Positions 49,430-61,059 of a stretch of DNA of 64,000 bases are shown one piece after another. Under the pieces are notes generated by a model that ran no database searches, was not told where the DNA came from, and saw nothing but the letters and a program-made list of their open reading frames with translations. Within the stretch, counting starts at the first letter, position 1. Each line of letters opens with the position of its first letter. The stretch covers positions 12,454-76,453 of the forward strand of contig CAZJQD010000013.1 of NCBI GenBank assembly GCA_964548165.1. Reading direction: 5' to 3'. Origin of the DNA: an uncultured bacterium (GTDB lineage: Bacteria; UBA8481). Position numbers and translations under genes: made by a program.

Positions 49430-50080
49430 ATGGATGACGCCGGGTTGAGCCGCATGGTGGACGAGATTGTCCGCAACATTGCCGGCACCCCGCTCGTCAA
49501 CCCCGCTCCCACGCGCATGGTCGTCGTGGGTGTCTCCAATCGGCACGGTCACCTCACCCGGGAGCACACGGAGATCCTCTTCGGCCCCGGCAAGCGGTTG
49601 ACCTCCTTGCGGCCGCTCTTGCAGCCCGGCCAGTTCGCCTGCAACGAGACGCTGACGGTCGTCACGGCCAAGGGGCAGATCCAGCGCGTCCGGCTCATCG
49701 GCCCCGAGCGCAAGTATACCCAGGTGGAGCTTTCGCGGACGGAGGCCATCCAGCTGGGGCTGGATCCGCCGGTCCGGCAGTCCGGCGAACTCGAGGGCAC
49801 CCCCGGATGCACGCTGATCGGTCCGGCGGGCACGGTCGTGATTCCGAGGGGCGTCATCATCGCGGGGCGGCACATCCACTGCCATACGTCGGAAGCGGAG
49901 GCGCTCCGGCTGAAGGATCGCCAACTGGTCCGGGTGCGCGTCGCGGGCGAGCGCGGCGCTGTCCTGGAGCAGGTGCTGGTCCGGGTTCACCCGGAGTTCA
50001 AGCTGGAGATCCACGTGGATACCGACGAGGCCAACGCACTGGGGCTTCACAACGGCGACCACGTGGAGATCCAGAGGTAG
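49430..50080 (+). CDS. pduL: Phosphate propanoyl/acetyl-transferase PduL (BMC phosphotransacylase)
   Basis: Two PduL repeats (VVGVSNRHGHLTREHTEILFG...; IIAGRHIHCHTSEAEAL...HVDTDEANALGL) and an N-terminal amphipathic LSRMVDEIVRNIAG encapsulation-peptide-like helix. Confidence 0.85.
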   Translation: MDDAGLSRMVDEIVRNIAGTPLVNPAPTRMVVVGVSNRHGHLTREHTEILFGPGKRLTSLRPLLQPGQFACNETLTVVTAKGQIQRVRLIGPERKYTQVELSRTEAIQLGLDPPVRQSGELEGTPGCTLIGPAGTVVIPRGVIIAGRHIHCHTSEAEALRLKDRQLVRVRVAGERGAVLEQVLVRVHPEFKLEIHVDTDEANALGLHNGDHVEIQR

Positions 50081-50216
50081 GAGTGCGAGCGGAAACGCAC
50101 AGGATGGTGGCTTCCGGCCGTGAATCGGTTTGCATCGGTCGGACGGATGGAGGATATTGCCAGCGTCGTCGTCAGGCGGTAGTCTGGCAGGCTTCAATTT
50201 TCTGGAGGAGGTTCTT

Positions 50217-50507
50217 GTGGAAGCTCTTGGGATGATCGAGACAAAGGGCATGGTCGGCGCCGTCGAGGCGGCCGACGCCATGGTCAAGGCGGCGAAAGTG
50301 ATCGTCGTCGGATTCGAGAAGGTCGGCGGCGGGCTCGTCACCACCTTCGTTCGCGGAGACGTTGCCGCCTGCAAGGCGGCCACGGATGCCGGCGCCGCCG
50401 CGGCCGAGAAGGTCGGCGAGCTGGTCGCGGTGCACGTGATTCCGCGCCCGCACCCGAACATCAAGGACGTCTTCCCGATCCGCGTTGCCGAGGACGGCAG
50501 CAAGTAG
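50217..50507 (+). CDS. Bacterial microcompartment shell protein, BMC-H (PduA/EutM-like)
   Basis: [27 protein letters not shown]...[11 protein letters not shown] start with a GGAGGA ribosome-binding site. Confidence 0.9.
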
Positions 50508-50514
50508 TCCATCG

Positions 50515-50823
50515 GTGAAGCTGGGTCGCGTCGTCGGCACGGTCGTCGCCACCCGCAAGTCTCCCAAGCTTCAGGGCACCAAGCTCCTGGTGGTGGAGGA
50601 ATGCGATATGGCCGGCAAGCCGAAGGGAACGTTCGTCGTCGCGGCGGACACGGTGGGCGCGGGCGCCAATGAAGTGGTGCTCCTCGTCGCCGGATCCTCC
50701 GCGCGCCTGGCGTATCCCAAGGAAGGCACGCCCATCGACGCGGCCGTCTCCGCGATCATCGATTCCGTCGATATCGCCGGAAAGGAACTGCACCCCAACG
50801 CCTGGCAGCCCGGCGAAGGCTGA
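50515..50823 (+). CDS. Bacterial microcompartment vertex protein, BMC-P (EutN/CcmL/PduN family)
   Basis: [15 protein letters not shown]...KLLVVEE...[23 protein letters not shown]. Confidence 0.85.
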
Positions 50824-58257: not shown

Positions 58258-58333
58258 TTTCGGCCGCTCCGTGGTCGGGTCGATCCGGCGGTTGCAATGG
58301 GGTACGAGGCGAACATAATGAACGGACAGGAGT

Positions 58334-59869
58334 GTGAGCACGGTGGAGATTGATCGCGAATTGGTGGAGCGCATCACGCGCGAGGTTGTCAGCAGGCTCT
58401 CGGGCCAGGCCACGGGGCCCCTCGTGGCGCCCCGCGCCGGCGGAGGGCTCCTGGCGGTCCTGACCGGCGGTCCCGCGGGGATCGACGAGGCCGTGACGCA
58501 GCTGCAGGAGGCGCGCGGCCGGTTCGGCTCGCTCACCGTCTACCTGACGCGGTGCGCGGACGGGCGCGTCGGCGACGAGATCACGCGCCGCGTCCGCCCC
58601 GACGCCGTGCTCCGCGAATCCGCGGGCGCCGGCACGGACCAGGCGCTCGCGACCGCGGGCGCCGTCGTCTACCCGGTCTGCACGATGACGACCGCGGCCA
58701 AGATCGGGCTTCTCATCGCCGACAACCCGGCCTCCGCGATCGCGATCGCGGCCCTCGTGCGCCGCATCCCCGTCGTGGTCGCCACCAACTCCATGCTGGC
58801 CTCCGTGACGCGGGGCGATCACCTGCCGCCGGAGTTCGCGGCCGTGGGCAGTGAGCACGTCCAGCGGCTTGGGCGCGTGGGCGTGCGCACGTGCGACATC
58901 CGCGAGCTCTCCGCGGCCTGCCTCGGTGGCGCGGTCTCCGGCGGATCGGTCACGGCCGCCTCGGCGGTCGCGGGCGCTTCCTGCGGGCGCCCGGCGCCGG
59001 CGGGAGCGACCTGGGCGCCATCGGCATCGATCGAGTGCGCGCCCGTCATCGAGAACCTCGGCGAGTTCATCAATTCCGCCCTGGCCGATGATCCTTCCTG
59101 CGCCCCGTGCGCGGCGAAGGTGAAGACGGCCATCGAGCAGTGTTTCGAGGCTGGAGCCTGCCGCATCGGCACGGCGGGGGCGCCGGAGTCCTCGCACGGG
59201 ACCAACAAGGTGGCCGGCATGATCGACCACACGCTCTTGAAGGCCACGGCGACACCGGCCGAGATCGAGAAGCTCTGCGCCGAGGCGCGCGAGTACAAGT
59301 TCAAGTCCGTCTGCGTCAACCCCGGCAACGTCGCGCTCTGCAAGCGGCTGCTTCGGGGTTCGGGCGTCCTCGTCTGCACCGTGGTGGGTTTTCCCCTGGG
59401 CGCCACGACGACGGGCGCGAAGGCGGCCGAGACGCGCGACGCCGTCGCCGATGGCGCCGACGAGATCGACATGGTCATCAACATCGGGGCCCTGAAGGCG
59501 GGCGAGTATGACAAGGTCAAGCATGACATCGAGGCCGTCGTGGAGGCGGCCAAGGGCCGGACGGTCAAGGTCATCTTCGAGACGCACCTGTTGACCGAGG
59601 AAGAGAAGGTTGTCGCCTGCCAGCTCTCGAAGTCGGGCGGCGCCCACTTCGTCAAGACCTCGACCGGATTCTCCGGCGGCGGCGCCACGGCCGAGGACAT
59701 CGCGCTCATGCGCAAGGTCGTCGGCCCGGGTTACGGCGTGAAGGCCTCGGGCGGAGTCCGGACCACGGAGGACGCTCAGAAGATGATCGCCGCAGGAGCC
59801 AACCGCATCGGCGCGTCCGCGTCGATCTCCATCGCGACGGGGAAGAAGTCGGAAAGCAAGGGCTACTGA
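58334..59869 (+). CDS. deoC: Deoxyribose-phosphate aldolase (DeoC) fused to an N-terminal extension of about 270 aa (encapsulation-peptide-like helix, flavoprotein-like segment, Cys-rich linker)
   Basis: C-terminal half is canonical DERA ([11 protein letters not shown]..., [50 protein letters not shown]). N-terminus [18 protein letters not shown]. Confidence 0.85.
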
Positions 59870-59871
59870 TC

Positions 59872-61059
59872 TTGCCCGCAGTATCGCCTCCTTTCTCCCG
59901 CGTTCTCCTGGTGGTTCTCGATTCGGTCGGCATCGGCGAGATGCCGGACGCGGCCGAATACGGCGACGCCGGTTCCAACACGCTCGCTCATACCGCGGCG
60001 GCGGTCGGCGGACTCCGGATGCCGAACATGGGCCGGCTGGGGCTCGGCAACCTCACGGATGTCGCCGGCGTGCCGCCGGTCGCGGTGCCGGAGGGCGTCA
60101 TCGGCAGGGCCGCCCTGGCGGCGCCGAACAAGGACACGACGTCCGGGCACTGGGAGATGATGACGTGCGTCCTTCCCACCAAGCTCAACACCTTCCCGGG
60201 GGGATTTCCGCCGGAGATCATCGAGGCCTTCTGCCGCGAGGCCGGAGTCGACGGGGTTCTTGGCAACAAGGTTGCCAGCGGCACCGACGTCATCACGGAA
60301 TTCGGCGACGAGCATTGCCGCACGGGCCGGCCCATCGTCTACACCAGCGCGGACTCCGTCTTCCAGGTTGCCGCTCACGAGGAGACCTTCGGGCTGGAGC
60401 GGCTCTACAAGGCCTGCGAGGCCGCTCGCAGGATCCTGGCGGGACCCTGGGAAGTCGGGCGCGTCATCGCGCGACCGTTCACGGGGAAGTCGGGCGCCTA
60501 CAAGCGCACATCGAATCGTCACGACTATTCGCTCTTCCCGCCGGTGCCCACGGTCTGCGACCGGTTGACCGAGGCCGGCATACCGGTCCTCGGAGTGGGA
60601 AAGATCCAGGACATCTTCGCGGGGCGCGGCATTCCCCGGAATCACAAGACCAAGGACAACGCCGACGGGATCGCCAAGACGCTCCTGGGTCTCTCCGAGG
60701 TGAAGACCGGGTTCGTCTTCGTCAACCTCGTCGACTTCGACATGGTCTATGGACACCGCCAGGATGCGCCCGGCTACGCGCGCTGCCTGGAGGAGTTCGA
60801 CGCGGCCCTGCCCTCGTTGATGGCCGCGCTTGGAGAGGGCGATCTCCTGATCCTCTGCGCCGACCATGGCAACGATCCCACCGACAGCCACACCGATCAC
60901 TGCCGCGAGTACTGCCCCATTCTCTGCTGGCACCCCCGCATCGCCAGCGGCCACCTCGGCACGCGGTCGTCCCTGGCCGACATCGGAGCGACCATCGCTG
61001 AGAATTTCGGCGTGACGCCCAGCGCCGGCACCTCGTTTCTCTCTCACCTGATCGCCTGA
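59872..61059 (+). CDS. deoB: Phosphopentomutase
   Basis: [17 protein letters not shown]...GSNTL...TSGHWEMM...ADHGNDPT. Confidence 0.85.

Follow-up and report, generated by a model that had tools for sequence, protein, structure and literature searches.

Which organelle do the bacterial microcompartment (BMC) genes at positions 49430-61059 of the window encode, and is deoxyribose-phosphate aldolase (DERA, DeoC) its signature enzyme? The window, meaning the whole stretch of DNA that was analyzed, is 64 kb of contig CAZJQD010000013.1 (GenBank assembly GCA_964548165.1, from an uncultured bacterium) with ~67% G+C; the closest named relatives of its MurC (71% and 65%) and of its DERA domain (74%) came from metagenome-assembled genomes of Candidatus Hydrogenedentota, a poorly studied phylum to which the source bacterium probably belongs. 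The eleven genes of this interval very probably form an operon-like cluster for a catabolic microcompartment of the sugar-phosphate-utilization (SPU) type that most likely degrades deoxyribose from scavenged DNA. That DERA is the signature enzyme of such a metabolosome, as the initial annotation had proposed, was supported by the lineage of the enzyme, its invariant catalytic residues and the conserved N-terminal helices of the predicted cargo proteins. Microcompartments of the SPU type rank among the most widely distributed ones and are thought to let bacteria grow on deoxyribose from environmental DNA, with the toxic acetaldehyde kept contained. To our knowledge, neither the isolation nor a genetic test of a native SPU organelle from a bacterium has been reported to date. 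The locus is a streamlined further example of this class, which is already catalogued and partly characterized, and not a new kind of system.

Gene content and gene starts

All eleven genes lie on the + strand and have a third-position GC of 0.80-0.92. The genes named in the initial annotation were all found at or near the positions that it gave, with domain scores well over the curated cut-offs. The features are as follows.

49430..50080, + strand: PduL-type phosphotransacylase (PTAC), helix at residues 5-18 (nt 49442-49483); PF06130 243 bits, NF011652 253 bits
50217..50507, + strand: BMC-H hexamer shell protein, 96 aa; PF00936 92 bits, EutM-like NF012018 141 bits
50515..50823, + strand: BMC-P pentamer (vertex) shell protein, 102 aa; PF03319 100 bits
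50910..52337, + strand: CoA-acylating aldehyde dehydrogenase (AldDH), helix at residues 7-20 (nt 50928-50969); NF011927 612 bits
52337..53722, + strand: PduS-like metabolosome NADH dehydrogenase (MNdh); PF01512, PF10531, Fer4_17, C-terminal PF13375
53715..54308, + strand: PduT-like tandem-domain trimer BMC-T(SE) with CPGK pore motif; two PF00936, 144 bits
54480..54965, + strand: 161-aa accessory protein, helix at residues 3-18 (nt 54486-54533), two ~45-aa modules; no Pfam match
54958..56559, + strand: 5'-nucleotidase, secreted or lipoprotein-like; PF02872 134 bits, PF00149
56599..58257, + strand: membrane HAMP-GAF-GGDEF diguanylate cyclase; PF00990 152 bits, GAF, HAMP
58334..59869, + strand: DERA, 511 aa, flavoprotein-domain fusion and signature enzyme; TIGR00126 281 bits at residues 293-500
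59872..61059, + strand: phosphopentomutase DeoB; NF003766 515 bits
44810..46303, − strand: NupC-type nucleoside transporter, outside the interval of the initial annotation; PF07662 255 bits, PF01773, PF07670

The shell and core genes proposed in the initial annotation were recovered in full. A search of the shell proteins against the 64 kb (tblastn) returned exactly one BMC-H, one BMC-P and one BMC-T gene and no further shell paralogue; the domains of PduL, AldDH and the PduS-like protein were confirmed, phosphopentomutase adjoins the locus, and DERA was the sole aldehyde-generating enzyme among the window open reading frames (ORFs) scanned. Pseudogenes among the shell genes, which that annotation had allowed for, were not found: all genes are intact, with a third-position GC above 0.8. 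Its description of the parts list as complete does not hold for the canonical SPU set, given a single BMC-P gene and the lack of ribose-5-phosphate isomerase (RPI) and triose-phosphate isomerase (TPI) in the 64 kb.

The BMC-H gene most likely starts at GTG 50217, after a GGAGGAGG ribosome-binding site, and not where the mechanical ORF opens (50130); BMC-H proteins of relatives are 92-97 aa long, against 96 aa from GTG 50217. For BMC-P, GTG 50515 is the most likely start, and with these two starts the apparent overlap of the H and P genes is gone. The BMC-T gene may start at 53739 instead of 53715, and DeoC probably starts at 58343 rather than 58334, since the deposited product is 508 aa long. 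Gene junctions are overlapping or tight at 52337, at 54958-54965 (an 8-nt overlap between the end of the 161-aa gene and the beginning of the 5'-nucleotidase gene) and at 59869/59872 (where DeoB begins 2 nt past the DERA stop). No + strand terminator-like site was found from 48.3 to 62 kb, a scan whose counts did not exceed the shuffled expectation and were uninformative, as were those for promoters. Scans of the whole window at the Rfam gathering thresholds and for tRNAs returned no matches; there is therefore no riboswitch ahead of the locus.

Related loci

A scan of genome contigs with DERA gave only 12 loci and one close relative on a 6-kb contig; related loci are referred to here by L-numbers. 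Gene order in L020 (DERA 89% identical) and L003 (69%) is H, P, AldDH, MNdh, T, 161-aa protein, 5'-nucleotidase, GGDEF protein, DERA and DeoB, with one BMC-P each and, in L003, an inserted MotA/MotB pair. Samples SRR15237813 and SRR18671895 contain the window DERA or the 89%-identical one. L008 (DERA 70% identical), a contig of 6 kb, holds only the T-to-DERA part of the window order. L001, L002, L003, L017 and L020 all retain DeoB next to DERA, and the pair of 5'-nucleotidase and GGDEF genes between core and DERA recurs in L003 (6625-9913), L020 (6631-9863) and L008 (996-4422).

At greater distance lies L004, a canonical SPU locus that ends with the same DERA fusion (46% identity across 98% of that protein); its gene order is PTAC, H, 202-aa protein, P, AldDH, PduS, T, H, H, TPI, RPI, P, H, P, DERA. 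In L011 (Aminicenantes) the order is H, P, AldDH, PduS, T, P, P, followed by a short-extension DERA as the last gene. Both L004 and L011 have three BMC-P genes; the SPU hallmark of at least three BMC-P paralogues is lacking in the window, with one PF03319 gene in 64 kb, and satellite loci elsewhere in the genome may hold more. No RPI (PF02502) and no TPI were detected among the window ORFs scanned, and tblastn with the L004 RPI found matches only in L004/L005, not in L003, L008 or L020; an RPI could be encoded elsewhere in the genome of the window. The DERA fusion of the canonical locus L004, together with the recurring layout, places the window DERA by sequence in the SPU DERA lineage and identifies the reduced layout, seen in three relatives, as a recurring form.

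Domain structure of DERA

The third-position GC is 0.84-0.98 over the entire 58334-59869 ORF, and the 290-aa N-terminal part of DeoC is therefore coding. An N-terminal amphipathic helix and linker had been noted in this part by the initial annotation and are present, but the extension also contains a flavoprotein-fold (HFCD) domain and a Cys motif that it had missed. In an AlphaFold2 model (mean pLDDT 85), a helix at residues 8-23/26 (nt 58355-58402) is followed by a disordered linker, an alpha/beta HFCD-fold domain at residues 38-197 (nt 58445-58924, pLDDT >90), a disordered stretch (200-235), a helical hairpin (236-272) and the TIM barrel (290-505, nt 59201-59848). The DERA domain matched the solved DERA 6d33 with 273 bits. 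In an alignment of 100 homologues, Asp379, Lys412 and Lys441 were invariant; these are the counterparts of the Escherichia coli catalytic set D102/K167/K201 (PMC11585597).

A word-based homologue search recovered a family of extended DERAs (~460-530 aa, query coverage 98-99%), for some of which a precomputed PF02441 (Flavoprotein) match exists, and the N-terminal consensus LVxxITREVxxxL was conserved in the 100-homologue alignment. With non-BMC DERAs (Neobacillus and others), the alignment begins no earlier than residue ~290 of the window protein. The flavoprotein-DERA (Flav-DERA) fusion was frequent in bacterial metagenomes in this search, contrary to its description as uncommon in BMCs (PMC12747264). 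As in SPU loci, the extended DERA is encoded together with shell genes, 4 kb past the last of them and in conserved synteny.

The N-terminal domain combines the HFCD/PF02441 fold with the P-x-[ST]-x-N-T..K..A....D motif of that family: a profile of the trimmed domain matched TvaF (E 1e-5) across P-x-T-x-N-T..K..A....D. The Pfam Flavoprotein score of the extension was 16.7-18.7 bits, below the gathering threshold of 22.7, and the window clade lacks the Asn of the SxNT motif. Two other matches were discarded, namely a likeness to V-ATPase in a single-sequence PDB search (E 0.04, chance matches only) and a designed TIM barrel that was the top match of the trimmed-domain profile search (a repeat artefact). 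HFCD proteins range from trimers to 24-mers, and the domain probably adds oligomerization to DERA.

A C-x(n)-C-x2-C-x2-C motif stands just ahead of the barrel (residues 235-276, nt 59036-59161), in a region modeled at moderate confidence (pLDDT 72-82). Among the 100 homologues, Cys was present at C235 in 88%, at position 253 in 83%, at C256 in 81% and at C259 in 96%. The window clade has Asp for Cys at position 253, the first of the triad, and additional cysteines at C270 and C276. The motif also occurs in the short-extension DERAs of L009, L011 (~9900-10000) and L017, and it is unmentioned in the main text of two of the SPU papers. It could be an Fe-S or a Zn site.

N-terminal helices of the predicted cargo proteins

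The initial annotation had predicted N-terminal amphipathic helices on DeoC, PduL, AldDH and the 161-aa protein. All four exist and are conserved, each with the pattern hxxhhxxxhhxxh and followed by a stretch rich in Pro, Gly and Ala and then by the catalytic domain, which in PduL (PF06130) begins at residue 33. Amphipathicity was evaluated as the best 14-residue hydrophobic moment, which was 0.77 for PduL (top 0.5% of the 14-residue windows of that protein), 0.64 for DeoC (top 1.6%) and 0.47 for AldDH; the 161-aa protein was judged by its pattern, and its first 14 residues are almost invariant across 7 homologues. The helices are conserved in loci with identities as low as 44-47%, and in loci of 44-95% identity the AldDH N-terminus can be aligned starting at residue 1-3. 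No such helix was found on DeoB, MNdh or the shell proteins.

In the relatives, automatic gene calls clip these helices: PduL of L020 (1220) was called at 208 aa, and similarity reaches 24 nt further upstream. Trimmed N-termini have been noted as an annotation problem before (Dwyer 2024, PMC11585597). For an archaeal SPU-type system, a 2025 preprint reported that the shells assemble and that Flav+DERA, AldDH, PTAC and a DUF protein are recruited in an encapsulation-peptide-dependent manner (PMC12747264), which is close to the experiment proposed in the initial annotation, on a related system.

Shell proteins, AldDH and predicted cofactor recycling

Shell genes of both kinds (PF00936 and PF03319) are clustered at 50217-54308. 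The best NCBIfam match of BMC-T was PduT TIGR02526 (146 bits, under its 250-bit cut-off), and CPGK stands at residue 53; L003, L004, L011 and L020 carry CPGK too. Among solved structures, the closest to AldDH, whose N-terminal helix resembles an encapsulation peptide, is a BMC aldehyde dehydrogenase, 5jfl (400 bits), and the two align at the catalytic-Cys motif DNNxxC[IV]AEKE.

The MNdh protein carries PF01512, PF10531, a 4Fe-4S dicluster domain and a C-terminal PF13375, and its gene abuts or overlaps that of the CPGK-bearing BMC-T at 53715-53722. A module of this kind, MNdh/BMC-T(SE), was defined by four MNdh domains, 97% adjacency in loci and a universal CP(G/S)K; it regenerates NAD+, with electrons going from FMN via three 4Fe-4S clusters (PMC11626177). 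No sequence-level difference between that module and the gene pair of the window was detected, and the PduS-like protein and BMC-T are identified by their domains and motif as this known, predicted NAD+ recycling module. Recycling by this module would explain the lack of an alcohol dehydrogenase.

The 161-aa protein

The 161-aa protein has a very small family, with 7 members at E<1e-10 in a set of 1.84 billion representatives. Its N-terminal helix is followed by a ~45-aa "..ITPAAR..A..LGV.." module that occurs twice. Its gene is kept in position in L003, L008 and L020. Residues 31-86 weakly matched positions 4-60 of NF012001 (EutQ; E 2.7e-6, 27 bits versus a cut-off of 193), another weak match was to the C-terminus of TIGR02536 (NCBIfam), and a profile search retrieved EutQ-cupin proteins via their N-terminal module (E ~3e-5). 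Elsewhere the module stands at the N-terminus of EutQ-cupin proteins and of one RpiB-domain protein and at the C-terminus of TIGR02536-like proteins. It is also C-terminal in proteins whose N-terminal part is a helix of this kind plus a flavoprotein-like domain, including the 202-aa protein of L004, which hhalign related to the DERA N-terminal domain with 97% probability and to the module with 88%.

In Salmonella, residues 1-99 of EutQ connect the shell to its cargo: residues 9-41 attach to the shell, helices H1/H2 bind the shell and H3/H4 bind cargo peptides (PMC12487888). Since the module resembles the EutQ N-terminus, the 161-aa protein is a candidate shell-cargo linker, a role proposed from weak similarity. 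Its distribution suggests that the ~45-aa sequence is a recurrent shell- or cargo-binding module of BMCs that has no Pfam model.

Proposed pathway

The activities, encapsulation and electron export described here are predicted from sequence. An exported 5'-nucleotidase would dephosphorylate extracellular (deoxy)nucleotides, NupC would import the nucleosides, and a nucleoside phosphorylase encoded outside the window would free deoxyribose-1-phosphate, which DeoB, presumably cytosolic, would by homology convert to deoxyribose-5-phosphate (dR5P). After passing a shell made of one BMC-H, one BMC-P and one BMC-T, dR5P would be cleaved in the lumen by DERA to glyceraldehyde-3-phosphate (G3P) together with acetaldehyde. 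The CoA-acylating AldDH would then turn acetaldehyde into acetyl-CoA with formation of NADH, and PduL would regenerate CoA and release acetyl-phosphate (acetyl-P). MNdh is expected to re-oxidize the NADH, with the pore of the adjoining PduT-like trimer, at its [4Fe-4S] site (CPGK), as the exit for electrons.

The N-terminal amphipathic helices would send PduL, AldDH, DERA and the 161-aa protein to the lumen, where the last of these, with its two modules resembling the EutQ N-terminus, probably ties cargo to shell. Oligomerization by the HFCD domain of DERA would probably help to nucleate the cargo core without the RPI partner of other SPU loci.

Alternative explanations

Several observations weigh against an SPU organelle built around DERA. 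Two genes without a known BMC role separate DERA and DeoB from the shell genes; the single BMC-P gene and the lack of RPI and TPI depart from the SPU norm (PMC11585597); neither a nucleoside phosphorylase nor an acetate kinase was found among the window ORFs; and 5'-nucleotidase, NupC and the GGDEF protein are linked to the locus solely by proximity and synteny. In L002 (GCA_964499705.1, 10001-12672), a 69%-identical Flav-DERA and DeoB occur with no BMC gene within 10 kb, which means either that the shell locus lies elsewhere in that genome or that an extended DERA works without a shell. The L002 Flav-DERA retains an intact N-terminal helix. The intervening genes and the L002 pair, where the order DERA-DeoB-PP2C-LeuRS looks like lineage synteny, would also fit a generic aldehyde-oxidizing metabolosome (the shell, AldDH, PduL and MNdh block, 49430-54965) with its signature enzyme elsewhere and with DERA and DeoB as nearby cytosolic deoxyribose catabolism. 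This is unlikely, given that the window DERA bears the conserved amphipathic helix and an extension of the BMC-DERA type, that a DERA of the same layout is embedded in the canonical SPU locus L004, that the ORFs scanned across the 64 kb offered no other source of aldehyde, and that synteny of shell block and DERA persists to 69% identity. The reduced gene set could instead be a decaying remnant of a canonical SPU locus that lost RPI, TPI, two BMC-P genes and extra BMC-H genes and builds no closed organelle. It has fewer shell paralogues and enzymes than any described SPU subtype, and the first Cys of CxxCxxC has become Asp in its clade. Decay is nevertheless very improbable: the genes are intact, the catalytic residues and the CPGK motif are retained, and the same set is kept in L020 and L003, with its T-to-DERA part in L008. 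One H, one P and one T gene suffice in principle for a closed shell, and PDU and EUT loci likewise possess a single pentamer gene.

The flavoprotein-fold domain and the Cys motif might make DERA a redox device (with FMN and/or Fe-S), for example a redox-gated aldolase or an extra electron branch to MNdh/BMC-T(SE), and both the conservation of the motif (81-96% in 100 homologues, and its presence in short-extension SPU DERAs) and the Fe-S/FMN electron relay encoded in the same locus would agree with this. Set against them are the sub-threshold Pfam Flavoprotein score, the loss of the SxNT Asn and of the first triad Cys in the window clade, the limited model confidence over the motif region and the activity that the SPU6 DERA kept without its extension, which together make a redox role highly unlikely. 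Somewhat less remote, but still doubtful, is the broader proposal that BMC DERAs carry an undescribed cofactor module (the Cys site, plus the HFCD domain in this subfamily) that would be redox-active or redox-gated and wired to MNdh/BMC-T(SE), with this module and the 161-aa linker jointly taking the place of the RPI scaffold and the pentamer triplet in the reduced, Hydrogenedentota-type locus.

Neighboring genes

The 5'-nucleotidase, whose N-terminus reads ...LFFLLAAGCAS, and the HAMP-GAF-GGDEF protein, a predicted c-di-GMP synthase and probably a regulator, sit between the shell genes and DeoC. DeoB has no N-terminal extension (NF003766 aligned its residue 8 to profile position 3). Together, DeoB, the 5'-nucleotidase and the nearby NupC fit a feed from deoxynucleosides to dR5P.

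Upstream of the locus, on the minus strand, are genes for an alpha/beta hydrolase, an FHA-GAF protein, a Ser/Thr kinase, the NupC-family transporter and an MFS transporter; downstream are a protein without an assigned family, a PP2C phosphatase and leucyl-tRNA synthetase. The Ser/Thr kinase and FHA-GAF genes (46316-48362, − strand) and the PP2C gene (61935-62816, + strand) flank the locus. FHA-GAF is kept in L020, and PP2C in L002, L003 and L020. This flank could reflect phospho-regulation of the locus or mere lineage synteny.

The other content of the window includes flagellar hook genes, a dcw cell-wall cluster and three MptE-like genes. An unusually long FlgE-like hook protein (1120 aa, 3391-6753) is encoded beside a second FlgE-like gene and FliK. 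The three MptE-like (PF01973) genes are consecutive (32970-40496), and one of them encodes 1249 aa with two such domains. Three well-supported ORFs of 403, 381 and 271 aa, at 26951-29307 (− strand) and 61169-61984 (+ strand), have no Pfam match and a third-position GC of 0.82.

Comparison with known systems

SPU loci were named by Axen 2014 (PMC4207490), and >280 loci from 26 phyla were later sorted into seven subtypes, with RPI common to all of them (Sutter 2021, PMC8217296). In 206 curated loci, DERA and AldDH were the common denominators and the BMC-P triplet was found in all; RPI was present in most subtypes, partial in SPU4 and absent from SPU5, PTAC was found in SPU1/4/7, PduS in all subtypes except SPU6, TPI was prominent in SPU1 and SPU4, and BMC-T(dp) was lacking in SPU1/4/7 (Dwyer, Sutter, Kerfeld 2024, PMC11585597). 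The purified SPU6 DERA of that study was active on dR5P after removal of its extension and bound an inactive RPI. The statement of the initial annotation that this class had no experimental characterization is outdated by that paper and by the 2025 preprint (PMC12747264).

With SPU loci in general the window shares the shell genes, an N-terminally extended DERA, an AldDH with a predicted encapsulation peptide and the predicted route from dR5P to G3P and acetaldehyde, acetyl-CoA and acetyl-P. Its enzymes resemble those of the SPU1/4/7 group, in that PTAC, PduS/MNdh and BMC-T(s) are present and no BMC-T(dp) or other second T protein was found, but TPI is lacking. It differs from SPU loci by its single BMC-P, its single BMC-H, the lack of RPI and TPI within the 64 kb, the 5'-nucleotidase and GGDEF genes between core and DERA, and the attached DeoB. 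The Hodarchaeales SPU-type system (PMC12747264), compared by description, likewise has Flav+DERA, AldDH, PTAC, MNdh and T(s) with CPGK; the first three of these and a DUF protein are predicted to bear encapsulation peptides, and a 5'-nucleotidase/phosphorylase/mutase route to dR5P was proposed for it too. Unlike the window, that system is archaeal, has PTAC fused to a citrate synthase and has several H and P paralogues, one of which bears a disordered tail that binds DNA.

The parallels with Salmonella EUT and PDU are that an aldehyde is made in the shell and trapped by an acylating AldDH (EutE/PduP), that PduL/EutD recycles CoA, that N-terminal amphipathic peptides target the cargo and that the EutQ N-terminal linker resembles the 161-aa modules. 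The predicted signature enzyme of the window, however, is a cofactor-independent class I aldolase and not a B12-dependent lyase or dehydratase, and alcohol dehydrogenase, reactivase and B12 genes are lacking. The E. coli cytosolic deo regulon is deoC-deoA-deoB-deoD. It has the same DeoC/DeoB route from deoxyribose-1-phosphate to dR5P and on to acetaldehyde and G3P, with nucleoside uptake as the feed; in contrast, the window lacks the deoA/deoD phosphorylases in its cluster and adds the 290-aa flavoprotein extension with its predicted targeting helix and a coupled aldehyde-oxidizing core that is predicted to be encapsulated.

The locus on its own opens no new question. Compared with these systems, it is a compact SPU version: hexamer, pentamer and trimer are each encoded by a single gene, four predicted cargoes bear putative targeting peptides, a module for NAD+ recycling is built in, and supply genes adjoin. 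Such a minimal set would be a convenient template for heterologous reconstitution and would help in testing the contributions of RPI and of the triplet of pentamers to other SPU subtypes.

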